Below are positions 3,912-15,087 of a stretch of 64,000 bases of DNA, in pieces. Position numbers and translations under genes: made by a program. Under the pieces are notes generated by a model, which worked only from the letters and a program-made list of their open reading frames with translations, was not told the origin of the DNA and ran no database searches. The stretch is taken from NCBI GenBank assembly GCA_014687725.1, contig GCA_014687725.1_4094.1. One strand, 5' to 3'. Within the stretch, counting starts at the first letter, position 1. The number at the start of each line of letters is the position of its first letter. Origin of the DNA: a phage.

Positions 3912-3916
3912 TTAAT

Positions 3917-4126
3917 ATGCTTACTGTACAGGATAAGATCGACATCTTAAAGGTTAATATGTATGTGATTGATGCAGTACCTGGTAAAGTATTTGCATAC
4001 GATGACACCACTGTAAGCGATTTCTACTATAGCCAGGACGTGGGGGATCTTTCTGTACAGTCGGTTATTGAAAACGTAGTTAATGCAGCGTATGAGCATT
4101 TACTTTCAAATAGTACTTGCAATTAG
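3917..4126 (+). CDS. hypothetical protein (69 aa)
   Basis: ATG 6 nt after previous stop, SD AAAAGG. Confidence 0.6.
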   Translation: MLTVQDKIDILKVNMYVIDAVPGKVFAYDDTTVSDFYYSQDVGDLSVQSVIENVVNAAYEHLLSNSTCN

Positions 4127-4176
4127 TTTTTAAACGCGTATAATGTTTTACATGAAGGGGAGAAATGATTCTCCCC
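4116..4176 (+). promoter_or_regulatory. class I early promoter + 5'UTR stem-loop cassette
   Basis: TTGCAA 4117-4122, TATAAT 4139-4144, hairpin GGGGAGAAATGATTCTCCCC 4157-4176. Confidence 0.6.
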
Positions 4177-4195
4177 ACTAATTAAGGAATATGAA

Positions 4196-4342
4196 ATGAA
4201 AGCATCAAAAAAGAGTAATACTAAGAAAGCACGTTCACCTTTCGCTGGGGTATTCCCTTTACGTTTCGTTGATGAAGTGGTTTCCTACCCGCCTGGCCTT
4301 ACTCCTGAGATGGTAGAAAGTTTGCGTAAATCTAAAAAATAA
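4196..4342 (+). CDS. basic small protein (48 aa)
   Basis: ATG with SD AAGGAA; below track size cut-off. Confidence 0.55.
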   Translation: MKASKKSNTKKARSPFAGVFPLRFVDEVVSYPPGLTPEMVESLRKSKK

Positions 4343-4344
4343 TA

Positions 4345-4405
4345 CTTGCAATTAGTTTTTAGTACTGTATAATAGTTTACATGAAGGGGAGAAATAGTTC
4401 TCCCC
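4345..4405 (+). promoter_or_regulatory. class I early promoter + 5'UTR stem-loop cassette
   Basis: TTGCAA 4346-4351, TATAAT 4368-4373, hairpin GGGGAGAAATAGTTCTCCCC 4386-4405. Confidence 0.6.
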
Positions 4406-4423
4406 AATAACAGGAGAAACAAA

Positions 4424-4576
4424 ATGAAACAATATAATGCTCGGATGGATGTAACTATCGGTAACGGCAAAGGTCAATTCTCTTTCAGTACTCGCAAAAG
4501 TTATACAGAAAACTTCCTGCGTAATTGTGCACTGACCGCCGCACAAATTAAACATTACTTTCAGGCTAAAAAATGA
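4424..4576 (+). CDS. hypothetical small protein (50 aa)
   Basis: ATG with SD AGGAGA; below track cut-off. Confidence 0.55.
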   Translation: MKQYNARMDVTIGNGKGQFSFSTRKSYTENFLRNCALTAAQIKHYFQAKK

Positions 4577-4662
4577 AATCATTAGCTTATTACAGTTCGG
4601 CCCTGGTCGGTGCATTGATCGCGGCATTGTTAGTAACCTATCTATTCTTTATGGTGATTTAA
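4573..4662 (+). CDS. 29-aa hydrophobic peptide (one predicted TM helix)
   Basis: ATGA overlap with upstream stop; MKSLAYYSSALVGALIAALLVTYLFFMVI. Confidence 0.4.
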   Translation: MKSLAYYSSALVGALIAALLVTYLFFMVI

Positions 4663-4800
4663 ATGAATCCTAACGGTTTAATTTACAGTACTCCTAAAAC
4701 GAAAGCAGATAAAGCGAAAGCACGTAAAGCGAAAGTAAAGGAGTACATCAAGCAAGGCATGACGCGAAAGGCGGCAATTCTAAAAGCTAAAAATAAATGA
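4663..4800 (+). CDS. lysine-rich small protein (45 aa)
   Basis: ATG directly after upstream TAA; followed by R1 terminator. Confidence 0.45.
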   Translation: MNPNGLIYSTPKTKADKAKARKAKVKEYIKQGMTRKAAILKAKNK

Positions 4801-4808
4801 AAAAAAAA

Positions 4809-4895
4809 GTGGTTGACTTCGGTCAGCCATTTTGCTATTATGTATTCATTGAGAGATAGCTCACTAGCCCACAGGGTGCATAAGTGTATCTATTG
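4809..4895 (+). repeat. R1 terminator-promoter cassette, copy A (divergent)
   Basis: hairpin TGGTTGACTTCGGTCAGCCA 4810-4829 + T-run; TTGACT 4813-4818 inside hairpin, 17-nt spacer, TATTAT 4836-4841; 3' box AGCCCACAGGGTGCATAAGTGTATCTATTG. Confidence 0.55.
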
Positions 4896-4944
4896 TATAA
4901 TGATTGAGTACTGAAAACTATTTTAAAGTATTTGATAAAAAGTA

Positions 4945-5004
4945 CTTGCATACTATCTCAATAGGCGTATAATGTTTTACATCGCAAGGGGAAACGGTTT
5001 CCCC
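4945..5004 (+). promoter_or_regulatory. class I early promoter + 5'UTR stem-loop cassette
   Basis: CTTGCA 4945-4950, TATAAT 4968-4973, hairpin GGGGAAACGGTTTCCCC 4988-5004. Confidence 0.6.
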
Positions 5005-5024
5005 TGGTAATAAGGAAACGAATC

Positions 5025-5366
5025 ATGACTATTGCAATTGCTCAATCTAACTTTGAAAACGAAATCATCGCTCAGGCACTGCGTTTAAATGATGGTCGGG
5101 CCGAAATCAATTACGGTTTCAATAGTGGTGGATGTGAAAAATATCAGTACTTTATAACTGCTGATGGCGGTGTCCTGGGCATCAATACCGTTATTGTAAA
5201 CATTCAGAAAATTAATTTCAATGATCCAGACGATAGCCAGTTTTACATCACGGGCGTAGACGTGAACTATGAGGATGACTCACTAACTGATGATCACACT
5301 GGTGAGAAGTTAGAAAGTGCATACGGTGAAGATGATTATCAGTCCGGTCCAGAAGATTTCGAATAA
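5025..5366 (+). CDS. hypothetical acidic protein (113 aa)
   Basis: ATG with SD AAGGAA. Confidence 0.7.
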   Translation: MTIAIAQSNFENEIIAQALRLNDGRAEINYGFNSGGCEKYQYFITADGGVLGINTVIVNIQKINFNDPDDSQFYITGVDVNYEDDSLTDDHTGEKLESAYGEDDYQSGPEDFE

Positions 5367-5458
5367 TATTAAAAAATAGTTTGACAATAGTTTTTAGTAC
5401 TGTATAATAGTTTACATGAAGGGGAGAAATGATTCTCCCCACTAAGAGGAAAAACAAA

Positions 5459-5671
5459 ATGGCTAATATCCGCACTGTACTGAAAAATGCAAAACAAGTT
5501 TTATTTTCTGATCATGAAAATTTCAACAAGGATATCACAGGTGTTCGGAATATCAAAGATGTAAAAAGTGTTATGGGTATCTATTGCAATATGAAACGTG
5601 TTGGCACGTTCGGCGATAAAGTACTATACCAGGCAGGGGATTACAATTTTACACTGACTATCATTAACTAA
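5459..5671 (+). CDS. hypothetical small protein (70 aa)
   Basis: ATG 5459 with SD AGAGGA; track start 5429 lies inside leader hairpin. Confidence 0.7.
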   Translation: MANIRTVLKNAKQVLFSDHENFNKDITGVRNIKDVKSVMGIYCNMKRVGTFGDKVLYQAGDYNFTLTIIN

Positions 5672-5684
5672 AAATATTATCACA

Positions 5685-5720
5685 GTACTATTGACAACGT
5701 TTGATAGTACTGGCATAATA
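5685..5720 (+). promoter_or_regulatory. class II palindromic promoter
   Basis: TTGACA 5691-5696, CATAAT 5714-5719; CAGTACTATTGACA..TGATAGTACTG. Confidence 0.55.
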
Positions 5721-5762
5721 ACTTTTATCAAGACAACGCATATTAATTTAAGGAATACTAAA

Positions 5763-5942
5763 ATGGCTATTATCGCAAAAACTGAAATCATCGGCCTGGA
5801 TTCTATCATCATGACGTTTGAAGATCAAAAAGGGATGTATGTAGTTTCCTATGGTGATTATGTTCGGGAGTATGAAACGGTAGACGAAGCCTTTGAAAGT
5901 TACATTCGCCAGGTGAATAAAGCATACGACGACTACCGCTAA
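5763..5942 (+). CDS. hypothetical small protein (59 aa)
   Basis: ATG 5763 with SD AAGGAA; track ORF started in promoter. Confidence 0.6.
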   Translation: MAIIAKTEIIGLDSIIMTFEDQKGMYVVSYGDYVREYETVDEAFESYIRQVNKAYDDYR

Positions 5943-5961
5943 AATATATTACCAGTACTAT

Positions 5962-5997
5962 TAAATCTATTGACAATGATTGATAGTACAGTATAAT
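5962..5997 (+). promoter_or_regulatory. class II palindromic promoter
   Basis: TTGACA 5970-5975, TATAAT 5992-5997. Confidence 0.5.
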
Positions 5998-6041
5998 AAG
6001 TTTTATAAACAGTAGTTAACTTAACCTAAGAGAGAAACAAA

Positions 6042-6185
6042 ATGATCGCACTGGATTCATTCATCGACGCAGTACTGGCAAAAACTGGCGAGGATCTGAC
6101 CGCAGAACAATACGCGATGATCGAGCAATGCCAGCAAAACGGTAAATCGGTGAAAGATACTGTTAAGATTATCCGCAAGATGTAA
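6042..6185 (+). CDS. hypothetical small protein (47 aa)
   Basis: ATG with SD AAGAGAGA; below track cut-off. Confidence 0.55.
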   Translation: MIALDSFIDAVLAKTGEDLTAEQYAMIEQCQQNGKSVKDTVKIIRKM

Positions 6186-6191
6186 GAATAT

Positions 6192-6220
6192 AGCCCACTG
6201 GTTAACGCTGGTGGGCTTTA
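6192..6220 (+). terminator. terminator-like hairpin containing a Chi octamer
   Basis: stem AGCCCAC/GTGGGCT with 12-nt loop, weak T-tract; GCTGGTGG 6207-6214. Confidence 0.4.
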
Positions 6221-6290
6221 ATCATTTACCCTATACAATGCCAGTACTAAACCGTTTAACTCGTTAGAATGCATTACAGGACGTTTAACA

Positions 6291-6488
6291 ATGATTAGCA
6301 TGAAATCAGTACAAAAACAAATTGATACATTATCAAAAATTAAACGTAAACAATACTCATTAGAATATACAATCAATGGTAACTATCATCTAATGAAAGA
6401 GAATAATTTCATAGTCATTGATGAATCATTGCAAGTTATTAGTATAGTACTGAAAGCATTAATCAATGACAGAAAAAAGTTAAAATAA
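6291..6488 (+). CDS. hypothetical small protein (65 aa), weak
   Basis: Track ORF; poor SD, very AT-rich. Confidence 0.35.
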   Translation: MISMKSVQKQIDTLSKIKRKQYSLEYTINGNYHLMKENNFIVIDESLQVISIVLKALINDRKKLK

Positions 6489-6492
6489 TCTA

Positions 6493-6521
6493 TTGACAAA
6501 TTATGCCAGTACTGGCATAAT
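6493..6521 (+). promoter_or_regulatory. class II-type promoter
   Basis: TTGACA 6493-6498, 17-nt spacer, CATAAT 6516-6521. Confidence 0.55.
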
Positions 6522-6583
6522 ACTTACATCAAGACGAGAACGTCACTAACCCATAGGGTGCACAAATGTAGCTGTCTAATATT

Positions 6584-6614
6584 GATCAAAAAATGATCTG
6601 ATCAATACTTGATC
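6584..6614. promoter_or_regulatory. GATC cluster within repeated TGATCA motifs (4 GATC in 31 bp)
   Basis: GATC at 6584, 6595, 6600, 6611; sits in a 330-bp gene-free region. Confidence 0.5.
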
Positions 6615-6819
6615 AATTTGCGTAAAGTAGTATAATTCTATGCAGTTGGTTAGACGAAAGGTTATGATTAGTAGTGGAAGTGTATAAAAATTTTCATGGT
6701 GTGGTGATCCGCACATATGGGGATGAATATGTCGTGTCGTATGGATTGGAAAAAGTAAGAACAAGTAATATACTTGTCGCGTTACAGTACTATAGTATTT
6801 TTATAATGAGGTTAAAATA

Positions 6820-7077
6820 ATGGCTGTAGGATTCACGAAAGATGGGGCCGAGCAAGACGAGATTAACGCAGTGATTCAGGCCGCTGTTAACCACGCTAGA
6901 ACGCAAATTAACGCACAAATAGAATCACTGATACATTGCCTCGACTGCGGCGATATAATCCCTGAGAAACGACGCCAGGCCGTTAAGGGATGTAAGTACT
7001 GCATAACTTGCCAGGAGGATCATGATAGTACTTTTAAACGTCCCCCGCGTAATTGTTGGCATAGATCTATGAGATAA
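6820..7077 (+). CDS. DksA/TraR-family C4 zinc-finger protein
   Basis: CLDCGDIIPEKRRQAVKGCKYC matches the TraR/DksA zinc-finger signature (CxxC...GxxIPxxRRxA...CxxC). Confidence 0.75.
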   Translation: MAVGFTKDGAEQDEINAVIQAAVNHARTQINAQIESLIHCLDCGDIIPEKRRQAVKGCKYCITCQEDHDSTFKRPPRNCWHRSMR

Positions 7078-7083
7078 AAAGTA

Positions 7084-7111
7084 TTGACAGTACTGAAAGA
7101 TAGTGTATAAT
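7084..7111 (+). promoter_or_regulatory. sigma70-like promoter
   Basis: TTGACA 7084-7089, 16-nt spacer, TATAAT 7106-7111. Confidence 0.5.
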
Positions 7112-7140
7112 ATTTTATATCTTAACTGAGGATTGAAATC

Positions 7141-7497
7141 ATGGGAATACAACATATCACGCGTACTACTGACAATGGCGAGATCACTGGCTATCAAGTA
7201 CAGGGCAAAGTAGCACAATTGCAGTACTGGTTTGTTAAACGTGGAATCATTGCACCGGATCTTGATTATGACCGTGTAGCGTTTATTGATTCTCTTTATG
7301 TTGATCCTGATAGTCGGGGCAATGGTGAAGGTAACGAATTAATGAATGCCTTTATTGATGCCGCCGATGATTCAGATTGTATCATTTTAGAATGCGATAC
7401 GGGAGAAGATAACGCCTTTAATCTTAAAGAATGGTACGAAGGTTTCGGATTCGAGGTACTGATCGATAGTGAATATCCTATCATGATTTTATCATAG
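7141..7497 (+). CDS. GNAT-family acetyltransferase-like protein (118 aa)
   Basis: VDPDSRGNGEGNELMNAF resembles the acetyl-CoA-binding R/QxxGxG/A loop; family call tentative. Confidence 0.6.
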   Translation: MGIQHITRTTDNGEITGYQVQGKVAQLQYWFVKRGIIAPDLDYDRVAFIDSLYVDPDSRGNGEGNELMNAFIDAADDSDCIILECDTGEDNAFNLKEWYEGFGFEVLIDSEYPIMILS

Positions 7498-7575
7498 TAC
7501 TTGCATTTAGTTTTCAGTACTGTTATAGTACTTACATCAAGGGGAAACATCTTCCCCTACTAAGAGGAAATAAAA

Positions 7576-7764
7576 ATGGAAAACTTATCAAGTATTTTAG
7601 TACAAGATGATTTCGGTAATCCTGGAAGTGCTATCATTGTTCGGGGTAATAAAGCAACATTTGTTATTGCTGGTGGACCTGTACAGCGTAGCATTAAAAA
7701 TAATGCTGTTACCATTAATAATGTACGCTATCGCTTAGATAAAGAATTGATTCATAAACTTTAA
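7576..7764 (+). CDS. hypothetical small protein (62 aa)
   Basis: ATG with SD AAGAGGAA behind class I cassette. Confidence 0.65.
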   Translation: MENLSSILVQDDFGNPGSAIIVRGNKATFVIAGGPVQRSIKNNAVTINNVRYRLDKELIHKL

Positions 7765-7848
7765 AAAGTATTTGACAATAGATTATAGTACTGTATAATA
7801 AGTTACATGAAGGGGTGAAATGATTCTCCCCACTAAGAGGAAAGAAAA

Positions 7849-8061
7849 ATGCAAGGTCAACTAATCGTTCGTAAATGGTCTGATACTAACGAAAAACCGT
7901 GGGATGTACAATACATCGGACCGGATGGGGTATCACGTTATCAGCCTGGCGTAACGCATAGTACTGAGCAATTCGCAAACGCTCACCGCGAACGCCTGTT
8001 AGAATCCATGAAACAGGGATTCTGTGAAAAATTCATTCAAGATCATTGGCTGAAAGATTAA
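7849..8061 (+). CDS. hypothetical small protein (70 aa)
   Basis: ATG with SD AAGAGGAA behind class I cassette. Confidence 0.7.
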   Translation: MQGQLIVRKWSDTNEKPWDVQYIGPDGVSRYQPGVTHSTEQFANAHRERLLESMKQGFCEKFIQDHWLKD

Positions 8062-8078
8062 TATAAGGAGTACAGCTT

Positions 8079-8171
8079 ATGCAAATGAATCCGATGATTA
8101 TTGTTTTAGCTGTACTTATGATCATTCATGCAATAGTAGAAGTATTAACGCAATCAGGAGTAATAAAATGA
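8079..8171 (+). CDS. 30-aa hydrophobic peptide
   Basis: ATG 8 nt after SD AAGGAG; MQMNPMIIVLAVLMIIHAIVEVL...; below track cut-off. Confidence 0.45.
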   Translation: MQMNPMIIVLAVLMIIHAIVEVLTQSGVIK

Positions 8172-8341
8172 TTCAAGTAGAATTATCAGTACTGAAAGAT
8201 CTGTTTTATCGGTTAGGTACTACTGGCGAGTATCCTAAAAGTGATACCGCAAAACTTTTTGTATCACTCGACTTATGGCAACGCGAACAATTAGTAATGT
8301 CCTGGCGTAAAGGTAAAGCAGATAGCGAGGTGAAAGCATGA
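8168..8341 (+). CDS. hypothetical small protein (57 aa)
   Basis: ATGA overlap with upstream stop; below track cut-off. Confidence 0.5.
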   Translation: MIQVELSVLKDLFYRLGTTGEYPKSDTAKLFVSLDLWQREQLVMSWRKGKADSEVKA

Positions 8342-8487
8342 AAGAATTCTTATTCGAAGTAGTGTTTCAAGGTGTCGGTAGTAACCAACTGATTCGCTCA
8401 AGTGGTTACAATGTTAACCAGGCATGGAATAACATTAAACAAATGTACCCGAACGCTATCACCTATCGCAACCCGAAACAAGTTTAA
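8338..8487 (+). CDS. hypothetical small protein (49 aa)
   Basis: ATGA overlap with upstream stop; followed by R1 terminator. Confidence 0.5.
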   Translation: MKEFLFEVVFQGVGSNQLIRSSGYNVNQAWNNIKQMYPNAITYRNPKQV

Positions 8488-8494
8488 AAATAAT

Positions 8495-8585
8495 TGAAAA
8501 AGGGATTGACTCCGGTCAGTCCCTTTGCTATTATATACGCATAGAAACAAATCAGCCCACAGGGTGCATAAATGTATCTATTGTT
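8495..8585 (+). repeat. R1 terminator-promoter cassette, copy B
   Basis: A-run + hairpin GGGATTGACTCCGGTCAGTCCC 8502-8523 + T-run; TTGACT 8506-8511, 17-nt spacer, TATTAT 8529-8534; 3' box ..AGCCCACAGGGTGCATAAATGTATCTATTG. Confidence 0.6.
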
Positions 8586-8812
8586 TGCTGGTGGCTAGTA
8601 CTATCAAGTACTGAAAACTATTTTTAAAAAAGTACTTGCATTGTACTTAGAATCAAGTATAATGTTTTACATCAGGACGGGGAACGAAACAAGTAACCCC
8701 GTTAAGTAGTCCAGGAGTAAGACATAAGAAAACCTCCCCTGATAAAATAGTTTGACAATAGAAAGTAAACGAGTATAATACTTACATCAACCACTGATAA
8801 GGAAACATTAAA

Positions 8813-9088
8813 ATGCGGATTCTACTGACAGCTAACGAAATCGAACAAGTACTGACTACTAACCTGGAAGACTGGAAACGTGAAGCAGATATCCAGGCGG
8901 TTCAACGGCTTAACGATGAGTTAACGCCGGATGACTTAAGCAAGATTGTAGATCCTCAATTCTACGAAGATATCCACGACACCGCGTTAAGCGTCGAGGA
9001 TGTACTAGATAAGCACTACATTGATATTGATTTGCAGGTTTACGGTCGTAAAAACTTTATCACTATTCACGACATTTACAATAATTAA
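8813..9088 (+). CDS. hypothetical protein (91 aa)
   Basis: ATG with SD AAGGAA; two promoters upstream. Confidence 0.7.
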   Translation: MRILLTANEIEQVLTTNLEDWKREADIQAVQRLNDELTPDDLSKIVDPQFYEDIHDTALSVEDVLDKHYIDIDLQVYGRKNFITIHDIYNN

Positions 9089-9174
9089 GTATTGACAAAG
9101 TATCTTAGTACTGTATAATAGTTTACATCGAGAGGGGGAATGGTTCCCCTCCTAACAAAGAGAGAGAAATAAAA

Positions 9175-9357
9175 ATGGCTAAATGCACTATCTGTAAGAA
9201 AGAAATCGTATTAGTTCCAAGTGCCCGTGAACGTGCCGCTCGGTTCGGTGGCAAACCGTCAGACTATACAAAAATGTTTACTGTCCATGCAGCTTGCCAG
9301 GTAGCAAAACGTTCACAAGAAAGCGTAGAATTAATGCGTAAACTTTCCAAAAAATAA
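9175..9357 (+). CDS. hypothetical small protein (60 aa), Cys-containing
   Basis: ATG with SD AGAGAGA behind class I cassette. Confidence 0.7.
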   Translation: MAKCTICKKEIVLVPSARERAARFGGKPSDYTKMFTVHAACQVAKRSQESVELMRKLSKK

Positions 9358-9445
9358 GTATTGACAAAGTATCTTAGTACTGTATAATAGTTTACATCAA
9401 GTGAGGGGAAACGGTTCCCCTCCTAACAAAGAGAGAGAAATAAAA

Positions 9446-9769
9446 ATGGCTATGATCCTTGCCCAGAAAGTAGAACTGAAAATTGTAACCTCCTTTGACA
9501 TTAAAGTTAATCGGTGGACTGATTCACACGGCAATACTTACCACTCTTGCTACGTGTCTGCGTTAATTGGTGATCGTTGGGAAGACCTGGGACATGAAAC
9601 CTTTACATACGGTTACGGCACACAAGGCGAATACACGGGCTTGGAGATCATTAAAGAAACCGTTATAGGTTTCAACCCGAAAGAAACAGTTATTCACCGC
9701 ATCGAGGAAGAGATCAACAAAGAAATAACAGTTCGATACTACGATGTAAAACGTAAGAAAGATATGTAA
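9446..9769 (+). CDS. hypothetical protein (107 aa)
   Basis: ATG 9446; track start 9401 is a GTG inside the leader hairpin; cassette 9355-9445 duplicates 9084-9174. Confidence 0.7.
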   Translation: MAMILAQKVELKIVTSFDIKVNRWTDSHGNTYHSCYVSALIGDRWEDLGHETFTYGYGTQGEYTGLEIIKETVIGFNPKETVIHRIEEEINKEITVRYYDVKRKKDM

Positions 9770-9855
9770 TAGAATCCATTTAAAGTACTATTTGACATTG
9801 CCCAGATAGTACTTTATAATAGACTCTAACTTGTAGTACTAACTCAACTAATAGG

Positions 9856-10260
9856 ATGTATACCATGATTACTAAATTCTACGCTACCCGTGAAGCTGCC
9901 CGTATTGTTGCACGCGAGGAAGGAGCAGCATTTAAAGACATGGGCAAAGATGCACCGAAAGGCCAACGCTGGGCCGTACAGTTCAAAGAGATCTCTGATA
10001 TTGTGAATTCACCTGAGCCAGTACTAACAGCAGCAGAACTAAAACGAGCGGATTTACTGGCGTCAATACTTGATGCACAAGATGAGTTTATCGCTGATTC
10101 TGATATCAAAGTACAGACAAACCATACCGCTTGGACTCACGCGGATCACCTGGCAAACCTGAAGCGTCCAAGTGAACTGGTACGCAACCAGAAAGAGATC
10201 CGACACGACCGTAAGGGTAATCGTGTAACAGTATACAGTAAACGCCGCCAGGTTATCTAA
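9856..10260 (+). CDS. hypothetical protein (134 aa)
   Basis: Track ORF; alternative ATG at 9865; GC-richer than neighbours. Confidence 0.7.
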   Translation: MYTMITKFYATREAARIVAREEGAAFKDMGKDAPKGQRWAVQFKEISDIVNSPEPVLTAAELKRADLLASILDAQDEFIADSDIKVQTNHTAWTHADHLANLKRPSELVRNQKEIRHDRKGNRVTVYSKRRQVI

Positions 10261-10282
10261 TAACTTGCAGTACTAACAACAC

Positions 10283-10308
10283 GGCGGGATCAGTTCCCGC
10301 CTTTTTTA
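10283..10308 (+). terminator. rho-independent terminator
   Basis: stem GGCGGGA/TCCCGCC + T6. Confidence 0.8.
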
Positions 10309-10321
10309 TAGGACAAACAAA

Positions 10322-10576
10322 ATGATTAAGGTTCAACTATATAAAGATAATATCTTGCGGGTACACTATAAAGCCCCTCAGAGAATCATCACAAAGGCCG
10401 TACAGCTTGCTAATGAGTTTATTAATGGTAACCTATTACCAAGGAAGTTAAGCAACGGAAAACTGCGTGTAATCGATGTAGACACTAACAACAGAATAGT
10501 AATTGAGAACACAGGAAAGATAAACCTATATGAACACCAACAATATAATAAGAAAATAAAACTAATATCACGTTGA
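10322..10576 (+). CDS. hypothetical protein (84 aa)
   Basis: ATG with SD AGGA. Confidence 0.6.
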   Translation: MIKVQLYKDNILRVHYKAPQRIITKAVQLANEFINGNLLPRKLSNGKLRVIDVDTNNRIVIENTGKINLYEHQQYNKKIKLISR

Positions 10577-10629
10577 CAGTACTCAATTGTTTTAGTACTA
10601 TGTACATATACCAACACGGGAGAAACAAA

Positions 10630-10848
10630 ATGAAATTATCTAAAATCGAAAAGAAAACTATTGATGAAGCAGTTAAGCACGGTTATACCTTTCGTAATGA
10701 TTCACATTTTACCAATTTTCAACAAGGGTATCGTACTATTAAAAAACTCATTGACAAAGGTTTATTAGTTGAAGTCAATAACGGCAATGGTATTGAGTAT
10801 CAACCAACACAAGACGCATTTTATTTTAAGAAATATAATATTATCTAA
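10630..10848 (+). CDS. hypothetical protein (72 aa)
   Basis: ATG 10630 with SD GGGAGAAA; track start 10573 is the TTG of the promoter -35. Confidence 0.65.
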   Translation: MKLSKIEKKTIDEAVKHGYTFRNDSHFTNFQQGYRTIKKLIDKGLLVEVNNGNGIEYQPTQDAFYFKKYNII

Positions 10849-10905
10849 TTGACAGTACTCAAATGTTTTAGTACTATATGTACATACCAACACGGGGAAA
10901 ACAAA

Positions 10906-11148
10906 ATGATTACTTTAGAAAAACGTATCAAAGAAACTACATCGCTGGTGGAACTGTTAACAGTACTGAAATGCCGTACTACTCGGTTTAGTACACCGGA
11001 CTTTATTAATATGGTTGATGTTAACGGTCGTTATCGCATTGCAGTAGAACAAGGAACAGCGAAAGTATTCAGTACTAAAAACACTAAGGAAGTGATTCAT
11101 GCTGTAAGTGTTAAAAAAGTAGTTGCCATTGATAGTAAAGTACTGTAA
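10906..11148 (+). CDS. hypothetical protein (80 aa)
   Basis: ATG 10906; promoter/leader block 10849-10905 duplicates 10563-10629. Confidence 0.65.
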   Translation: MITLEKRIKETTSLVELLTVLKCRTTRFSTPDFINMVDVNGRYRIAVEQGTAKVFSTKNTKEVIHAVSVKKVVAIDSKVL

Positions 11149-11179
11149 GATAGTTTCATTAACTCAAGGAGAACATGCA

Positions 11180-11764
11180 ATGCGTAATTATACTAAATTC
11201 ATCCGTACCCTGTCAGAAATGGAAACCAACAAAGAGATCCTTTCAGCTTGTCGGTTAGCTGGTCTGGAGATCATCGGTGCGGGTTCTTCCCGTATTGTAT
11301 TCGCTTTAAATGATCGGTTAGTGATCAAGGTCGCGAATTGTGATGCGGGTGTAGAACAAAATGAAACTGAATGTAAGGTATGGAATTTTTTAGATTATGA
11401 CCGCCCTCAATTGAAACAGTACTTTGCAAAGGTGCATATGCATTTATGCGATCCTGATAATATGTTTATCGTTATGGATCGGTTGAGTACTGCAAGTAAA
11501 GGCAGTGTAAAGCACGTAAACGCGTGCAATGAATTAAAGTACAATATTAAACGTAATGCCATTGAACGCCAGCACCGCTTTGCTGATGCACTACAACACG
11601 TTGATGATACATTATCAACACTAACGATAAGAGATATCAGAAAACAGAATATCGGCCAGGATCGTAATGGCCTTATTAAAGTACTTGATTACGGTTTAAC
11701 CCGCAATATCTGGAATCAGTACTATAAAAAGCGTGATGTAGAAGCAAGTAAGGTAACACGATAA
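11180..11764 (+). CDS. protein kinase-like protein (eukaryote-type kinase fold)
   Basis: Gly-rich loop GAGSSRIVF, VIKVA lysine, catalytic-loop-like IRDIRKQN, DFG-like DYG; ATG with SD AAGGAG. Confidence 0.75.
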   Translation: MRNYTKFIRTLSEMETNKEILSACRLAGLEIIGAGSSRIVFALNDRLVIKVANCDAGVEQNETECKVWNFLDYDRPQLKQYFAKVHMHLCDPDNMFIVMDRLSTASKGSVKHVNACNELKYNIKRNAIERQHRFADALQHVDDTLSTLTIRDIRKQNIGQDRNGLIKVLDYGLTRNIWNQYYKKRDVEASKVTR

Positions 11765-11771
11765 AAAAGAT

Positions 11772-11862
11772 TAAAAAAGGGATTGACTCCGGTCAGTCCC
11801 TTTGCTATTATATATTCATTGAGAGATAACTCACTGACCCATAGGGTGCGGAAGTGTATCTA
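11772..11862 (+). repeat. R1 terminator-promoter cassette, copy C
   Basis: hairpin 11779-11800; TTGACT 11783-11788, TATTAT 11806-11811. Confidence 0.6.
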
Positions 11863-11984
11863 TTATATAAGTATTCAGTACTGAAAACTATTTTAAAAAA
11901 GTACTTGCAATGTACTTAGAATCAAGTATAATGTTTTACATAGAGAGGGGGAAATGGTTCTCCCTGGTAATAAGGAATAAAATC

Positions 11985-12206
11985 ATGACTACAATGACTT
12001 GCATTTACGCTTCCAATCTTCTGAATGATGCGGCCTTTAATGTTGATTCAGAATATCAATGTTATCGGGATGAAAATAAAAAAGTTTTTGTAGTTGATAA
12101 TAATGGTTTCCATATTGAATTACAATCCGGTTTCACTGGTGTTGATGGTAAATCAGTGTGGGGCGTACAGGATGATAAAGGCACATATCATTTTAAACGT
12201 AATTAA
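11985..12206 (+). CDS. hypothetical small protein (73 aa)
   Basis: ATG 11985 with SD AAGGAA; track start 11910 is inside promoter/leader. Confidence 0.7.
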   Translation: MTTMTCIYASNLLNDAAFNVDSEYQCYRDENKKVFVVDNNGFHIELQSGFTGVDGKSVWGVQDDKGTYHFKRN

Positions 12207-12290
12207 GTATTGACAAAGTATATCAGTACTGTATAATAGTTTACATCAAGGGGAGAATAGTTCTCCCCGATACTAAAAGGAAACAAAATT

Positions 12291-12563
12291 ATGTCCAGCT
12301 ACTCCGCTACTATGATCATTAAAGATATGAACGGTAATCCTACTTCTGCTGGTGGATCATTTGGAAACATTAATTTAGATGGTCGGTTATCCATGCAATC
12401 AGCCATCGATGCAGCGAAAGAAGTTTTTAAGAATGAATGTACTGTTAGTAAGCTGGATTATATGGGATTCGCTATCGAGAAAACTAATCGTTTTGTGAAC
12501 TACAAAAATCCACTGATGATTGATACTAACCTGAAAGCTAACGAAGTGGGGTACTTATTATGA
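12291..12563 (+). CDS. hypothetical protein (90 aa)
   Basis: ATG with SD AAAGGAA behind class I cassette. Confidence 0.7.
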   Translation: MSSYSATMIIKDMNGNPTSAGGSFGNINLDGRLSMQSAIDAAKEVFKNECTVSKLDYMGFAIEKTNRFVNYKNPLMIDTNLKANEVGYLL

Positions 12564-12751
12564 CAGTAGAAGAAGTTAAAAAAGTACTGGCAGTACTACG
12601 CTATCATAATCATTGCAAGGTGAAGAATGATCCTGATTATGTTGATTCATCCCTGGAGGAAGACACATTAAACGCAATAAGCCATATGCAAACATTAGCA
12701 AAGCGTATGACCGAAAAGAATAGACCGGACTATATCGGAAATAAAATTTAA
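12560..12751 (+). CDS. hypothetical small protein (63 aa)
   Basis: ATGA overlap with upstream stop. Confidence 0.6.
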   Translation: MTVEEVKKVLAVLRYHNHCKVKNDPDYVDSSLEEDTLNAISHMQTLAKRMTEKNRPDYIGNKI

Positions 12752-12837
12752 AAAGTACTTGCATTGTAGTTAGATTAACGTATAATGTTTTACATAGAGC
12801 GGGGGAACTATTCCCCCGCCAGTCCAGGAGATACACC

Positions 12838-13101
12838 ATGAACACTATCGAAATCACTATCAATGCACACGTATACGACAACGTAGTACTGCAAACTACT
12901 ATGACCGCTAATGATACCAGTACTTTGCGGAATACTGTTATTAGTGCCGTATGTGCCGCTATCGGTGATGTCGCCCTGGAAAATGCAGAACACATCAACA
13001 ACGGTTTCACTATGTGCAAACGTGATAACGCAAAACATATCATCGTAGAAGGTTACGGCGGTGTAGAATATAATCTTTATATGAAAAAAGTACTTGCATA
13101 A
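12838..13101 (+). CDS. hypothetical protein (87 aa)
   Basis: ATG with SD AGGAGA behind class I cassette. Confidence 0.7.
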   Translation: MNTIEITINAHVYDNVVLQTTMTANDTSTLRNTVISAVCAAIGDVALENAEHINNGFTMCKRDNAKHIIVEGYGGVEYNLYMKKVLA

Positions 13102-13168
13102 TAACTAAAACAAAGTATAATGTTTTGCATAGGGGGAGATATCCTCCCCCACTAAAAGGAGTAATAAA

Positions 13169-13393
13169 ATGGCTAACTTTGATGAACTGATGCGGGAAGT
13201 AGCTAACCTGGCAGAAGAGAAGAAATCATTCGATTCTATCTATAACACCGCTCACCGTGATTCAGTACTGGCATGTACTCAGGATCAAAAAGATGAACTA
13301 ATCGCCACATATCATGAAGCATGGAAGTACTACCGCCAATGGGAGAAAGAAGAAAGCGAGTCTACCATCAACGGCATCAATAATCTAATCTAA
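13169..13393 (+). CDS. hypothetical small protein (74 aa)
   Basis: ATG with SD AAAGGAG behind class I cassette. Confidence 0.7.
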   Translation: MANFDELMREVANLAEEKKSFDSIYNTAHRDSVLACTQDQKDELIATYHEAWKYYRQWEKEESESTINGINNLI

Positions 13394-13469
13394 AAGTTTT
13401 ATTTCAGTACTATTGACATAGCTTGATAGTACTGATGTAATAACTTTACTAACTACAAGGGGAAACATA

Positions 13470-13727
13470 ATGGAACAGTTCACACAATATCGGGTAAATC
13501 CTCAAGCTATGGCCTACGTAGAAGACCATAAAACGTTACCAGTACTAACACCAATTAAAGGCCATATCTATCGTGCAATGTCATGGAATACGGCCCAGGA
13601 TGGATATACTACCGCTGGCGTGGGTATGTATTGCGGGAATGGTGAATGGTTTGATCCAAATAATCCGGTAGCCATTGACAGTACTGAAAAAATGAAATGG
13701 GCCGACTACATCGAAGATATTTCATAA
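13470..13727 (+). CDS. hypothetical protein (85 aa)
   Basis: ATG with SD AAGGGGAA behind class II promoter (TTGACA 13413-13418). Confidence 0.7.
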   Translation: MEQFTQYRVNPQAMAYVEDHKTLPVLTPIKGHIYRAMSWNTAQDGYTTAGVGMYCGNGEWFDPNNPVAIDSTEKMKWADYIEDIS

Positions 13728-13816
13728 AACTATTTGACAGTACTAACCAGTAATGTATAATGTTTTACATAGAGCGGGGGAATAGTTCTCCCGCCAATAG
13801 TTTGGAGTAAAACATT

Positions 13817-14017
13817 ATGTCTATCGCTATCGCCCTGGTTGAAGTACTGAAAGAAGCTAAAGCCAACCTTATCGATGTACAGATTAAGGAATTACAAAAT
13901 GGTTTAATCGGCTGTACTTGTACCGCTGGTGGAGCGGCAGACTATCGGGAATTCGAATCACTTGAATCGATGGTCCGTTATCTTACCATGATCGTAGAAG
14001 ATTGGAGAATCATCTAA
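13817..14017 (+). CDS. hypothetical small protein (66 aa)
   Basis: ATG with SD TTGGAG behind class I cassette. Confidence 0.7.
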   Translation: MSIAIALVEVLKEAKANLIDVQIKELQNGLIGCTCTAGGAADYREFESLESMVRYLTMIVEDWRII

Positions 14018-14028
14018 CAAAAAAGAAT

Positions 14029-14115
14029 AAAAAAAGGGATTGACTCCGGTCAGTCCCTTTGCTATTATATACGCATAGACAAAAACTAGCCCACTGGGTG
14101 CAGGAGTGTATCTAA
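14029..14115 (+). repeat. R1 terminator-promoter cassette, copy D
   Basis: hairpin 14036-14057; TTGACT 14040-14045, TATTAT 14063-14068. Confidence 0.6.
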
Positions 14116-14263
14116 AATATATAGTTAATAACGGTGAGTAACTATCTGCTGGTGGGGTGAAAACTATTAATAAAAAAAGTATTGACAAAGTATATCAGTA
14201 CTGCAATAATGTATCTCGTAGGGCGGCAATGGTGCGACGGCCCACAAAGTTAGGAGATTCAAA

Positions 14264-14596
14264 ATGAGTACTTCAATCGCTATCGTTAAAGCTTTCATCC
14301 GTACCAATGTTTCATCTGTATTCATCGACGGTCTGGATCGGGAAGTAGAATACTCAATCATTATCGCACAGACTGCAAACGGTGCTCGGTATATCCTTAA
14401 TGATAGTGAAGCAAATCACTACTACTTCACTAAAGCTACTGGCTTTAAACGCATCGATGCTGACGTAGTATACACTAAGATGAATAAGCTGGTAGACAAG
14501 ATTAACGCGAAAGGTACTATCGATTTACAGTACTGGACCGAAACCGATCCAGAATATGGATCTCACCGCTACCTGAATCCAGGTATTAAAATGTAA
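14264..14596 (+). CDS. hypothetical protein (110 aa)
   Basis: ATG with SD TAGGAGA. Confidence 0.7.
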   Translation: MSTSIAIVKAFIRTNVSSVFIDGLDREVEYSIIIAQTANGARYILNDSEANHYYFTKATGFKRIDADVVYTKMNKLVDKINAKGTIDLQYWTETDPEYGSHRYLNPGIKM

Positions 14597-14685
14597 AAAG
14601 TACTTGCATAGTACTTAGAATCAAGTATAATGTTTTACATAGAGAGGGGGAAATGGTTCTCCCTCCTAAATTAAGGAGTTTTATC

Positions 14686-15087
14686 ATGACCTTCTCAATC
14701 AATTCCTTCGCTGACGTTTTAGTACTGGCTCGGACTTTCGGTAAAGATGCACTGGAGTACGCTGTAAGTAATGGTACTATCCAACCGGAACAGTGCCGCA
14801 TCATTGGAAACTGCAAACGTTGGGCGGTATCCAATACTATTGCACTGGAAAACTTCCACGATGGCAACAATGAATATTCTGTTGATGTAGTATTCGAAGC
14901 CGTTGATCTCGGCGGTATCTATAATACTAACCTGAATGATGTGCGTATCGTTCGCACGGGGTTCGGTGCTTATGATGTATCTATTCGTGAAGCTATGAAC
15001 ACCGGATACATTAGCAAGGACTTACTTGCTCACATCATGCAGCTGTGTACGGAACGTAACGAAGCACGCACTATCTTAGGACTGTAA
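14686..15087 (+). CDS. hypothetical protein (133 aa)
   Basis: ATG 14686 with SD AAGGAG; track start 14653 lies in leader hairpin. Confidence 0.7.
   Translation: MTFSINSFADVLVLARTFGKDALEYAVSNGTIQPEQCRIIGNCKRWAVSNTIALENFHDGNNEYSVDVVFEAVDLGGIYNTNLNDVRIVRTGFGAYDVSIREAMNTGYISKDLLAHIMQLCTERNEARTILGL

Follow-up and report, generated by a model that had tools for sequence, protein, structure and literature searches.

The R1 copies and their setting

The window is a stretch of 64,000 nucleotides from a phage contig (GCA_014687725.1_4094.1). We identify it as a terminal-repeat early region of Asteriusvirus, a Rak2-like jumbo coliphage of E. coli. Asteriusvirus genomes show 93-98% identity with the window, which begins at what is position 4529 in the 20,993-bp terminal repeat of fEgEco12 (PMC13070987).

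Copies of a cassette, here called R1, lie after the stops at 4800, 8487, 11764 and 14017, with hairpins 6-16 nt 3' of the stops (Table 1). An earlier note had placed four copies at these sites. The order that it described is present in each: stop codon, A-run, 12-bp hairpin with a UNCG loop, TTGACT-17-TGcTATTAT and a conserved box. Nevertheless, four is not the total. The window presents six box copies, the additional ones at 6493-6575 (plus strand) and 325-185 (minus strand). The repeat had also been given as about 85 bp long, but the unit is longer. A second strong promoter (P2), with a UP-like A/T tract, lies 3' of every plus-strand copy. Likewise, a related arrangement had been reported at 46238. 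A terminator-like hairpin with TTGACT-17-TGaTACATT is found there (46238-46274), although the box is absent.

Table 1. Features of the R1 copies and related sites in the window. R1 starts, stops and RNA sizes are predictions from sequence.
Feature	Position	Strand	Details
Copy 1 terminator hairpin	4806-4833	+	AAAGTGGTTGAC-TTCG-GTCAGCCATTTT; A-tract before, T-tract after; stop codon 4798-4800
Copy 1 stem arms	within 4806-4833	+	5' GTGGTTGAC, loop TTCG, 3' GTCAGCCAT
Copy 1 promoter P1	4813-4841	+	TTGACT 4813-4818, 17 nt, TG, TATTAT 4836-4841; predicted start A4848 in CAT
Copy 1 conserved RNA	4848-4893	+	HP1 TGAG-AGATAG-CTCA 4850-4863, then linker CTAG
Copy 1 HP2 box	4868-4879	+	CCCACAGGGTGC; then tail ATAAGTGTATCTAT 4880-4893
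P2 after copy 1	4946-4973	+	TTGCAT, 16 nt, TATAAT; A/T tract upstream; serves gene 5025-5366
Copy 5 (plain promoter, without terminator hairpin)	6493-6575	+	TTGACA 6493-6498, 17 nt, TGgCATAAT, CATAAT 6516-6521; start A6528
Copy 5 RNA	to 6575 (tail end)	+	HP1 GACG-AGAA-CGTC 6533-6544; box CCCATAGGGTGC 6550-6561
P2 after copy 5	6609-6636	+	
Copy 2 terminator hairpin	8499-8526	+	AAAGGGATTGAC-TCCG-GTCAGTCCCTTT; stop at 8487 precedes
Copy 2 P1 and RNA	8506-8581	+	TTGACT 8506-8511, TATTAT 8529-8534, start A8541, box 8556-8567, tail to 8581
P2 after copy 2	8636-8663	+	TTGCAT, 16 nt, TATAAT
Copy 3 terminator hairpin	11776-11803	+	AAAGGGATTGAC-TCCG-GTCAGTCCCTTT; stop at 11764 precedes
Copy 3 P1	11783-11811	+	TTGACT 11783-11788, TATTAT 11806-11811, start A11818
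Copy 3 RNA	to 11863 (tail end)	+	HP1 TGAG-AGATAA-CTCA; box 11838-11849
P2 after copy 3	11905-11932	+	
Copy 4 terminator hairpin	14033-14060	+	AAAGGGATTGAC-TCCG-GTCAGTCCCTTT; stop at 14017 precedes
Copy 4 P1 and RNA	14040-14115	+	TTGACT 14040-14045, TATTAT 14063-14068, start A14075, box 14090-14101, tail to 14115
P2 after copy 4	14182-14210	+	
Copy 6 promoter	325-297	-	TTGACA 325-320, TGgCATAAT, CATAAT 302-297, start A290
Copy 6 RNA	from 290	-	HP1 GAC-GAAACA-GTC 285-274; box CCCACCGGGTGC 268-257; tail to 243
Copy 6 terminator	217-195; hairpin 216-196 and U-rich run	-	Bidirectional; also terminator of gene 17-190
Box-less overlap	9785-9820	+	Hairpin GTACTATTTGACATTGCCCAGATAGTAC containing TTGACA, 17 nt to TATAAT; between genes 9401-9769 and 9856-10260
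Box-less overlap	46238-46274	+	Hairpin ACCAG-GGGTTGACT-CTGGT and T7; TTGACT, 17 nt, TGaTACATT; RBS directly after, ATG 46294

The pattern TTGACTYCGGTCAG has four exact matches in the window and six in total at up to two mismatches, against 0.46 expected. The 25-nt box pattern has five matches, against 0.01 expected. The hairpins also fold far better than shuffled sequences (copy 1: -15.9 kcal/mol, z -4.8; copy 2: -21.3 kcal/mol, z -6.4). Taken together, these results exclude chance.

Terminator and promoter in the same DNA

The P1 promoters of the four R1 copies consist of TTGACT and TATTAT separated by 17 nt, with TG at -15/-14. The counterpart of the copy 2 hairpin in phage G17 is annotated as an ARNold terminator. 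Compared with copies 2-4, the copy 1 stem presents two compensatory changes.

We compared about 120 unique copies from related phages, including 44 unique hairpin copies. The 5' arm is TTGAC in 40 of these 44, and the 3' arm occurs as GTCAG, GTTAG, GTTAA, GTCGG or GTTGG. The changes in the 3' arm are restricted to swaps between Watson-Crick and G-U pairs (G-C 24 and G-U 20; U-A 33 and U-G 11; U-G 34 and U-A 10), while the -35 arm is kept as TTGAC. The loop is UNCG in 28/44, and the extended -10 is conserved across copies. These comparisons show selection on both the putative terminator and the putative promoter function of the hairpin DNA. The claim of a -35 buried in the stem is sustained: the hairpin of an intrinsic terminator and a sigma-70 promoter are specified by one stretch of DNA. 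The cassette is located between transcription units and would insulate them, as had been suggested.

Among 62 box matches in eight phages, the hairpin is present in 35 of the 44 gene-direction (plus) copies and in none of the 18 antisense (minus) copies. It means that the hairpin behaves as the terminator of the upstream gene, not as a component of a switch. With a U-tract this short and broken (UUUGCUAUUAU), the hairpin may stop only some of the polymerases. We infer that P1 fires and that the hairpin terminates transcription in vivo.

A predicted conserved RNA downstream of P1

In the 62 box matches of the eight phages, the box lies 21-29 nt 3' of a near-consensus promoter, scoring at least 8.5/12. 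The element is always promoter-proximal and has a single orientation relative to its promoter. The predicted RNA begins with a covarying 5' hairpin (HP1), continues with an invariant CCC-loop-GGG hairpin (HP2) and ends in a conserved tail.

HP1 occurs as 31 distinct stems with loop types in common. In 32 gapless copies, all four pairs vary on both sides, and the covariation score is 0.72, against 0.17 after shuffling and 0.11 or less in slid controls; the variants are paralogue types shared across genera, so that independent changes are fewer than the counts suggest. This set was picked for a 4-bp stem, and its paired-cell percentage is therefore circular. HP1 is absent or has only 2 bp in a short-leader class, which includes copy 2 (without a real HP1 stem) and copy 4 of the window.

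In HP2, the C-G pairs are found in 59-60 of 60 sequences, and the closing pair is A-U in 28 and G-U in 29. One compensatory change to U-A is present, with a second instance in another phage. Each box position is 87-100% conserved, save two variable loop positions, and the tail is also near-invariant across genera. The surrounding sequence has diverged between genera, and conservation ends 13 nt past GGGTGC. In single-sequence folding, the RNA core is no better than shuffles (z -0.06 to -1.6). A search for a partner, target or RNA-binding protein of this RNA identified none, and we found no description of it in the literature.

By these comparisons, the box is no appendage: the embedded promoter would transcribe it into a lineage-wide structured RNA. 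The earlier note had overlooked this, as well as what appears to be a separate promoter for the downstream gene. By inspection, P2 precedes the next gene in all five plus-strand cases of the window and in most of those from related phages.

The plus-strand copies have no terminator between the P1 RNA and P2. There, a longer mRNA may simply begin with this RNA, unless processing releases it or P2-bound polymerase blocks its extension. Single (unpaired) minus-strand copies reach a terminator 22-26 nt past the tail. Copy 6 (185-325, minus) is predicted to be a self-contained small-RNA unit, with an RNA of about 105 nt. Convergent R1 pairs show a fixed geometry, and some gene-free regions contain R1 units only.

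Distribution among phages

The element is kept well outside the genus: a 115-nt query matched 65 phage records with 72-100% identity. They are jumbo phages of Escherichia, Klebsiella, Salmonella, Cronobacter, Pectobacterium, Erwinia, Serratia and Yersinia. A scan of IMG/VR gave 31 stretches, 25 on contigs of about 345-378 kb and six on shorter contigs (13-109 kb). A search of 185,579 species genomes of bacteria and archaea gave only two matches, both in unrelated MAGs without R1 context. Sequence comparison demonstrates how the cassette is built, that its hairpin is doubly constrained, that promoter and box go together, that HP1 covaries and that R1 is restricted to this lineage.

Comparison with known systems

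The short phage transcripts lambda oop RNA and lambda PR'-tR' 6S RNA are constitutive, with a strong promoter and a terminator close behind it. The minus-strand R1 copies present the same arrangement of promoter, non-coding RNA of about 100 nt and intrinsic terminator. However, they have no sequence similarity to oop or 6S and belong to a multi-copy family, and neither a Q-binding element nor an antisense target gene was found for them. The lambda nut boxB/boxA and HK022 putL/putR sites encode promoter-proximal antitermination RNAs. Like R1, they have two small hairpins and a conserved segment just 3' of early promoters, and the HP1 loop of R1 is purine-rich. In contrast, R1 has no sequence match to them, includes antisense copies and convergent pairs, and has no cognate factor that we could find.

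The overlap of terminator and promoter is a known design. It is found in the PeSL (promoter-early stem-loop) cassettes of T4-type phages (Arbiol et al. 2010, PMC2839356; Comeau et al. 2014, PMC4122927), which were demonstrated with reporters to be both promoters and terminators (PMC2839356). As in R1, the cassettes are short, repeated and intergenic, and they occupy plastic early regions crowded with small ORFans. Each joins a near-consensus sigma-70 promoter, preceded by an A/T tract, to a G/C stem-loop at which transcription from upstream ends, and subclasses with the stem-loop overlapping the -35 or -10 are known. The nt-1/KVP40 stems (A3-4G3-loop-C3T3-4) are close to the AAAGGG...CCCTTT of R1. 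Nevertheless, R1 belongs to Rak2-like jumbo phages, its -35 invariably forms the inner 5' arm, which a UNCG loop closes, and its promoter-plus-RNA unit also occurs without the stem-loop and in antisense. PeSL ends in the RBS and start codon of the next gene, whereas R1 would drive a conserved non-coding RNA and a second promoter would serve the gene.

PA5oct, a Pseudomonas jumbo phage and distant relative, expresses ncRNA001 and ncRNA002 from its long terminal repeat, each with 1.2-5% of phage reads in RNA-seq (PMC7318152). R1 would share with them the non-coding RNA from a terminal repeat. The PA5oct RNAs differ in being single-copy and of 236 and 451 nt (PMC7318152), and the R1 box is absent from both sequences.

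Alternative explanations

The HP1-HP2-tail segment could be a cis-acting leader, whose RNA or non-template DNA acts on its own polymerase as at lambda nut, HK022 put or ops/RfaH sites. It could also signal pausing or processing. Either way, it would alter read-through of downstream terminators or define mRNA ends. The fixed position and orientation near a promoter are consistent with this, as are several terminators in the region and the invariant 12-nt element at about +20 to +35, an ops-like position. The purine-rich HP1 loops (GAGAAA, GCGAAA, AGAACAA) presumably resemble boxB-type loops, and GG-N8-UG in box and tail fits, in our own reading, the consensus elemental pause. However, 18 copies are antisense to all genes, and most single ones meet a terminator-like hairpin at 8-26 nt, with nothing useful past it. 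Convergent pairs would collide. R1 has no similarity to nut, put or ops, and a check of ten ORFs in the terminal repeat gave no N-, Q- or RfaH-like gene. We regard such a leader as unlikely. It is quite improbable that P1 simply adds transcription to the next gene, with an optimised initial transcribed region and 5' stabiliser that has no RNA function. The plus-strand copies do run unterminated into P2 and a gene. Ordinary P2 units (families D1 and D2) also have the initial CAT, the 5' hairpin and an ACUAA-like linker, which makes such a 5' UTR a possible origin of R1. But a tandem promoter leaves unexplained the terminated minus-strand units of about 100 nt, the convergent pairs, the gene-free regions with R1 only, and a box and tail near-invariant across genera despite diverged neighbouring sequence.

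We find very little probability in a DNA-level element, be it a recombination linker (PeSL-type shuffling or mini-circles), an operator or a transcript-primed (R-loop) origin like T4 oriF/oriG. About 45 bp are identical in copies 2-4 (family D17), which suggests gene conversion. HNH endonuclease genes adjoin some copies, and a G-rich RNA segment (GGGUGCGGAGGUG) is followed by A/T-rich DNA. Homology between Asteriusvirus genomes breaks at promoter cassettes (window 4336, 5374, 5967, 7762, 9355 and 13729), yet these breakpoints coincide with P2-type promoters and not with R1 proper. The G-U tolerance of the terminator and of the HP2 closing pair, together with the HP1 covariation, argues for selection on RNA, and an operator or linker would not need strict coupling to a promoter. 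Finally, the earlier note had proposed a structural switch, with hairpin formation and promoter use mutually exclusive at module junctions. The -35 hexamer is inside the inverted repeat, and upstream polymerases would halt within P1, making some interference possible. But the hairpin forms in the RNA of incoming polymerases and the promoter is read on duplex DNA, so that no shared molecule is contested. The promoter-plus-RNA unit lacks the hairpin in 27/62 copies, the hairpin follows only the presence of a same-direction upstream gene, as a plain terminator predicts, and no conserved alternative pairing or sensor sequence was found. A switch is hardly credible.

Proposed function

R1 is probably an early-region cassette with two jobs, terminator and P1, whose P1 makes a conserved non-coding RNA of a multi-copy family in the terminal repeat. 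The hairpin (A-tract, 9-12 bp stem, UNCG loop and U-rich tail) would be the intrinsic terminator of the upstream early gene. P1 would be a strong extended -10 sigma-70 promoter in the same DNA, with the -35 TTGAC as the inner 5' arm of the stem. The sixth -35 base is the first base of the loop, which may account for T rather than A. The terminator U-tract would double as promoter spacer, TGn and -10. The next gene would be served mainly by its own P2.

The predicted P1 product has a core of about 45-50 nt and starts at the A in CAT. It would consist of HP1 (3-5 bp covarying stem, purine-rich loop), the linker YUAR, HP2 ((R)CCC, 3-4 nt loop, GGG(U)) and a single-stranded tail, GC-RGARNU-GUAUCUAU. 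The promoter-plus-RNA unit is restricted to the terminal repeat in Rak2-like jumbo phages, in multiple copies and in three settings. Some copies point in the gene direction and are joined to a terminator, others are inverted and run into a bidirectional terminator as a predicted complete small-RNA gene of about 100 nt, and others form convergent pairs. We assume a conserved partner for the invariant HP2-tail module, which could be an RNA or a protein of phage or host.

The novel part seems to be the putative product of P1, a conserved structured RNA, and not the overlap of terminator and promoter. We infer that this product is a discrete and abundant immediate-early small RNA. R1 as a whole is most likely a multi-copy family of small immediate-early RNAs.

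The R1 cassettes and their place in the early region

Positions 4000-15000 of the window are 93-98% identical to the Asteriusvirus jumbo coliphages Turkey3, vB_Ec-M-J, slurp01, CRJP21 and G17. Position 1 aligns with position 4529 of phage fEgEco12, which has a direct terminal repeat of 20,993 bp according to PhageTerm and restriction digests (PMC13070987). The first ~16.4 kb of the window is therefore terminal repeat. Two features agree with this. The G+C content falls at about 16 kb, and the plus strand is very densely set with near-consensus σ70 promoters (97 promoter-like sites vs 60.5 expected, ten of them perfect at 12/12). The real genes of this part are all short and all on the plus strand.

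The four copies of R1, the terminator-promoter cassette, show the order that the earlier note had described: stop codon, A-run, hairpin, TTGACT-17-TATTAT and box. The hairpin has 12 pairs. It reads AAAGGGATTGAC-TCCG-GTCAGTCCCTTT in copies 2-4 and AAAGTGGTTGAC-TTCG-GTCAGCCATTTT in copy 1, which differs by two compensatory stem changes and a UUCG loop instead of UCCG. The hairpin-core pattern has four exact matches in the window and six with at most 2 mismatches (0.46 expected); the box pattern has five (0.01 expected). These numbers far exceed expectation, so the repeats are not there by chance. Two further copies had been missed (see the table). Copy 6 runs into the hairpin at 216-196, the bidirectional terminator of a gene ending at 190.

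P1, the promoter with its -35 in the terminator stem, is TTGACT-17-TGcTATTAT in 4/4 copies. Judged by consensus only, it scores 10/12 and has an extended -10 (TG at -15/-14). The A-run is located at -44 to -40. A separate strong promoter of the next gene, P2, follows every plus-strand copy in the window, 80-110 nt past the predicted P1 start. It consists of an UP-like A/T tract, TTGCAt or TTGACA, 16-17 nt and TATAAT, and bears the 5' UTR hairpin and the ribosome-binding site of that gene.

Positions of R1 units and associated features in the window and in early-region loci of related phages
Feature	Sequence	Position	Strand	Remark
R1 copy 1	window	after stop 4800	+	
R1 copy 2	window	after stop 8487	+	
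R1 copy 3	window	after stop 11764	+	
R1 copy 4	window	after stop 14017	+	
R1 copy 5	window	TTGACA-17-TGgCATAAT 6493-6521; box 6550-6561	+	box-pattern search; no hairpin, promoter-box distance as in R1
R1 copy 6	window	TTGACA 325-320; CATAAT 302-297; box 268-257	-	two-strand scan
Box-less overlaps	window	9785-9820; 46238-46274		
Convergent pairs	L003	1008/1076; 3818/3886		
Convergent pairs	L005	3789/3857; 6618/6686; 22899/22967		
Convergent pairs	L006	1003/1089; 7403/7482		
Convergent pair	L041 (fEgEco12)	3197/3265		
Single copies	L041 (fEgEco12)	1110; 4796	-	
HNH genes	L006; L007; L008	15406-15950; 14567-15082; 15001-15947		directly beside R1-type cassettes
σ70-family factor genes	L008 (Serratia phage BF); L009	4005-4997; 4104-5096		near the early region

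Other repeated elements were seen in the window. Around 25 sites in 345-14670 (e.g. 5363-5458, 7754-7849 and 11896-11970) are ordinary early units with one stereotyped layout. Each has an UP-like A/T tract and a TTGACA or TTGCAt spaced 16 nt from TATAAT. The start is at TACAT, and then come a 5' hairpin GGGGAGAAATGGTTCTCCCC, a linker reading ACUAA or UGGUAAU, and the ribosome-binding site (repeat families D1-D3, D7 and D10). The stretch 8664-8812, past the P2 of copy 2 (8636-8663), would give ~90 nt of hairpin-rich, apparently non-coding transcript and then has a third consensus promoter, TTGACA-16-TATAAT (8752-8779), ahead of a gene at 8813-9088. A near-identical terminator pair at 1072-1093 and 1797-1817 has the form AGCCCAC-loop-GTGGGCT followed by T5-6. 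Its opening heptamer is that of the box in R1 copies 1, 2 and 4, and Rfam gives weak Trp_leader-like matches there, below threshold.

The AGTACT hexamer is ~11-18x over-represented, with 233 occurrences in 64 kb and 95 within 1-16000 (~5 expected). It is often found as (C)AGTACTG directly 5' of a -10 (AGTACTGTATAAT, AGTACTGGCATAAT) and also within coding repeats. Possible roles are in protein binding, in modification or as a promoter-spacer signal. Two arrays of small paralogous genes or repeats occupy 16300-22000 and 32680-34750; one has units of ~215-270 bp (D8, D11 and D13) and the other units of ~440-480 bp (D4 and D6), 62-78% identical. Besides the two σ70-family factor genes of the table, such a factor is reported for CBB (CBB_513) and Sharanji. 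It bears on how P1, P2 and other early promoters are later shut off.

The hairpin is a predicted terminator that shares bases with a promoter

The R1 hairpins begin 6-16 nt past the stop codons, and their folding energies are -15.9 and -21.3 kcal/mol (z -4.8 and -6.4). As in intrinsic terminators, a U-tract follows (UUUGCUAUUAU; UUUUGCUAUUAU in copy 1), and the hairpins pass a terminator scan. The predicted 3' ends fall in the U-tracts, at 4834-4842 for copy 1 and at the matching positions of the others. They carry an ARNold terminator annotation in the G17 record. The predicted efficiency is uncertain because the U-tract is interrupted.

We counted hairpins by orientation in seven sources with known gene orientation (the window and the early-region loci L002-L007). 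A stable hairpin burying the promoter (-11.8 to -17.8 kcal/mol) is present in 35/44 plus-strand copies and in 0/18 minus-strand copies. The nine hairpin-free plus-strand copies comprise six in convergent pairs and three single ones (window 6550, Munch 20321 and a doubtful RaK2 match). From these counts and the nature of the exceptions, the hairpin is found where there is an upstream gene to be terminated. It appears to be a terminator and not part of a switch, and the promoter-plus-RNA unit seems to work without it.

The two arms of the stem vary differently. In 40 of the 44 unique hairpin copies, the -35 arm reads TTGAC. The partner arm is GTCAG (18), GTTAG (9), GTTAA (5), GTCGG (5), GTTGG (2) or GTTGA (1), with swaps only between Watson-Crick and G-U pairs. 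The loop is a UNCG tetraloop closed by C-G in 28/44, an RNA-specific stabiliser. Since the partner arm tolerates G-U, the hairpin is selected as RNA; since the 5' arm is frozen, its bases are also selected as a -35. Both functions, predicted terminator and -35, are under selection. In C(UNCG)G, the first base of the loop is also the sixth base of the -35, a possible reason for TTGACT instead of TTGACA. The terminator U-tract (TTTGCTATTAT) also serves as spacer, TGn and -10, and the A-run may act as an UP-like element too.

The earlier note had read the cassette as a regulatory switch or insulator in which promoter and terminator exclude each other. Its dual use as predicted terminator and promoter holds, and insulator is a fair term, since the cassette closes one unit and opens another. 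The switch does not hold. The hairpin belongs to the upstream RNA. Polymerase reads the promoter on duplex DNA, so both functions can operate without structural exclusion.

A conserved RNA is predicted downstream of P1

In eight phages, 62 box matches have a promoter of score 8.5/12 or more, usually with TG, whose -10 lies 21-29 nt 5' of the box. The remaining matches are weak or within coding sequence. A conserved CAT places its A 7 nt past the -10, as the other early promoters of this phage do. In the window, the predicted starts are A residues at 4848, 6528, 8541, 11818 and 14075 and, on the minus strand, at 290. The box appears to be a transcribed product of the promoter. The predicted RNA consists of a hairpin (HP1), a YUAR linker, a second hairpin (HP2, the box) and a tail.

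HP1 has a stem of 3-5 bp and a purine-rich loop (AGAACAA, GAGAAA, GCGAAA or AGAUAA). We found 31 distinct stems at one location with shared loop types, and when a 5' and a 3' arm are drawn from different copies, only 4% of such pairs are complementary. In 32 gapless copies, a set selected for a 4-bp stem, 4/4 pairs vary on both sides (GC, CG, AU, UA, GU), with a covariation of 0.72 against 0.17 ± 0.03 for shuffled and at most 0.11 for slid partners. A stem of 4 bp or more is present in 62% of the real leaders and in 30% of shuffled ones. The short-leader class, including copies 2 and 4, has no real HP1 stem.

HP2 is formed by CCC, a loop of 3 nt (AYA and variants) or 4 nt (UAUA, UCAA, UAGA), and GGG. 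Its stem is almost invariant, with three C-G pairs in 57-60/60 copies and a closing pair that is A-U in 28 and G-U in 29. Two phages present the compensatory CCU...AGG (U-A). Pairs kept by compensatory change are thus found in HP1 and HP2, the HP1 set being a selected one in which several stem types are old paralogues common to several genera, so that independent events are fewer than the counts. The tail consists of UGC and then RGARNU-GUAUCUAU, and conservation stops 13 nt past GGGUGC. Complementarity and mutual-information tests found no pairing partner for the tail. A leader-tail closing helix, taken from single-sequence MFE folds, was rejected: complementarity is 4.21 within a copy and 4.16 ± 0.06 between copies, and there is no long-range mutual information.

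A known RNA family or ribozyme was discarded for want of an Rfam match; a permissive scan of window 1-16500 with Rfam 15 gave no relevant match for the conserved RNA. The box sequence was not found in a phage context in the literature searched, and the genome papers of CBB, fEgEco12 and Sharanji do not mention it.

The RNA unit occurs in three settings

In the plus-strand copies, the order is terminator/P1, RNA, P2 and gene. Single minus-strand copies have P1 divergent from P2, the RNA, and a terminator hairpin 22-26 nt past the tail. Complete minus-strand units of ~100 nt occur at window 325-185 and in RaK2, Munch, CBB, GAP32 and a Yersinia phage. With a predicted promoter and terminator of its own and no ORF, the unit at 325-185 has the properties of a small-RNA gene, as do the minus-strand single copies elsewhere. 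The five plus-strand copies of the window do not, because no terminator was found ahead of P2. A short RNA from them would require processing or a block by P2-bound polymerase.

In convergent pairs, two units lie face to face with the inverted box at a fixed 31 nt past the tail (13 entries), often in gene-free DNA by the left genome end. Within a pair, the boxes are perfect inverted repeats of each other over ~14 bp. The small ORFs that annotations place across these pairs (e.g. CBB_7 and fEgEco12 g05) are probably spurious. An Asteriusvirus terminal repeat thus holds at least nine units.

Only the promoter and the RNA are common to all three settings. For this reason, the RNA or its synthesis would be the point, rather than a role for the downstream gene. 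The three settings point to an independent RNA unit.

Distribution among phages

A 115-nt query (8486-8600) matched 65 phage records at 72-100% identity. Outside Escherichia, they include Klebsiella phages RaK2, K64-1 and Muenster, Cronobacter GAP32, Pectobacterium CBB, Salmonella Munch, SE_PL and PHA46, Yersinia fHe-Yen9-03, Serratia BF, and Erwinia Hallingskeid and pEa_SNUABM. Phages with the cassette have only about a third of their proteins in common (PMC5259590). We scanned the early regions of seven matched phages on both strands, and the pooled data set holds 122-124 unique copies from all sources.

In IMG/VR, 31 stretches matched the exact pattern, 25 of them on contigs of ~345-378 kb and 6 on shorter contigs (13-109 kb). 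Among 185,579 bacterial and archaeal species (one genome each), there were two matches, both in unrelated MAGs without R1-like context, and a host-derived or prophage element was rejected. R1 is therefore specific to Rak2-like jumbo phages (Asteriusvirus, Alcyoneusvirus, Mimasvirus, Eneladusvirus and relatives). In three loci (see the table), R1-type cassettes have an inserted HNH homing-endonuclease gene directly beside them. In Munch, one box is degenerate (CCCACAGGGCGG) and an HNH gene takes the place of the tail.

Comparison with known systems

The promoter-early stem-loop cassettes (PeSL) of T4-type phages are repeated intergenic elements with a σ70 promoter and a G/C stem-loop, which in some subclasses overlaps the -35 or -10. 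Reporter assays gave strong promoter activity and termination on a par with rrnB T1, and a role in modular gene shuffling was proposed (PMC2839356; PMC4122927). R1 resembles them in its σ70-type early promoter with an upstream A/T-rich tract (62 related copies, by consensus only) and in a stable stem-loop that overlaps the promoter and is positioned, by prediction, to end upstream transcription. The nt-1/KVP40 stems, A3-4G3-loop-C3T3-4, also resemble those of R1. The overlap of terminator and promoter is therefore a known design, present here in another phage lineage. The box-less overlaps of the table are exactly of the PeSL type, ending in a Shine-Dalgarno sequence and a start codon; the one at 46238, noted earlier as related to R1, is a real hairpin/promoter overlap. 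The 3' end of R1 is different: P1 leads to an RNA core of ~45-50 nt and then to P2. This conserved RNA is what the PeSL description does not contain, and it is the part worth experiments.

Homology between Asteriusvirus genomes breaks off at promoter cassettes (window 4336, 5374, 5967, 7762, 9355 and 13729, all P2-type); only 14125 abuts an R1 copy. The breakpoints would fit PeSL-like shuffling, though at P2-type cassettes and not at R1. They coincide with the ordinary early units, which suggests shuffling of this kind.

PA5oct, a distant relative, has two abundant terminal-repeat ncRNAs by RNA-seq (PMC7318152). We found no homology between these and the R1 RNA.

Possible functions of the RNA

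We propose that the R1 units would encode an immediate-early small RNA in multiple copies, and that its invariant HP2-tail module would bind a conserved partner. A wider reading is tentative and, on balance, somewhat doubtful. In it, the HP1-HP2-tail RNA could be an unrecognised immediate-early RNA class of all Rak2-like jumbo phages, made from at least nine strong promoters per terminal repeat (~18 per packaged genome). Its invariant CCC-loop-GGG-UGC...GUAUCUAU module could capture a conserved host or phage factor, as decoy or regulator, or reprogram the transcribing polymerase.

The main rival is a cis-acting role of the RNA in antitermination, pausing or processing. Its resemblance to nut, put or ops-type sites is positional only, and the antisense and convergent copies weaken it. 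A Pfam search of ten terminal-repeat ORFs gave no RNA-binding or antiterminator protein, only a kinase-like and a GNAT domain. A plain tandem promoter, with P1 simply preceding P2, is less likely, the downstream gene being a feature of some settings only. A DNA-level role in recombination, as operator or as origin is also less likely, and so is the structural switch, given a hairpin that follows the upstream gene only.

Other candidates were tried and rejected. Mini-ORFs or leader peptides from the tail RUG differ among copies; one is ATG-TAG, and the tail class AUCCGUC has no start codon. As for a MotA-like middle or T4-like late promoter, only some copies have the downstream -10-like hexamer and the ATAAAT motif. 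A promoter for a phage σ factor is unsupported, the published middle motif being TGAAACG...TATA (PMC5259590). An antisense target in phage mRNAs was not found: the plus strand of the 64-kb window has no anti-box except the complement of the minus-strand copy. CsrA, Shine-Dalgarno or RegB-type GGA/GGAG motifs of the tail occur in about half of the copies only (2/6 in the window).

Significance

Rak2-like jumbo phages are under proposal for phage therapy (e.g. PMC13070987, PMC12648861), and no transcriptome study of any of them was found in the literature searched. The analysis gives a precise, predicted map of their early transcription signals. It also gives a clear natural case of a doubly constrained sequence, with the -35 fixed and its pairing partner free only within G-U tolerance. 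The R1 cassette may also serve as a compact insulator part that combines terminator and promoter.

The conserved non-coding RNA is lineage-specific and multi-copy, and is absent from current annotations or hidden under spurious small ORFs. Because box and tail are invariant, all copies could be detected with a single probe or silenced with a single antisense oligomer, so its function is directly testable. If the wider reading is true, the HP1-HP2-tail RNA would be a central player in host takeover by Rak2-like jumbo phages.
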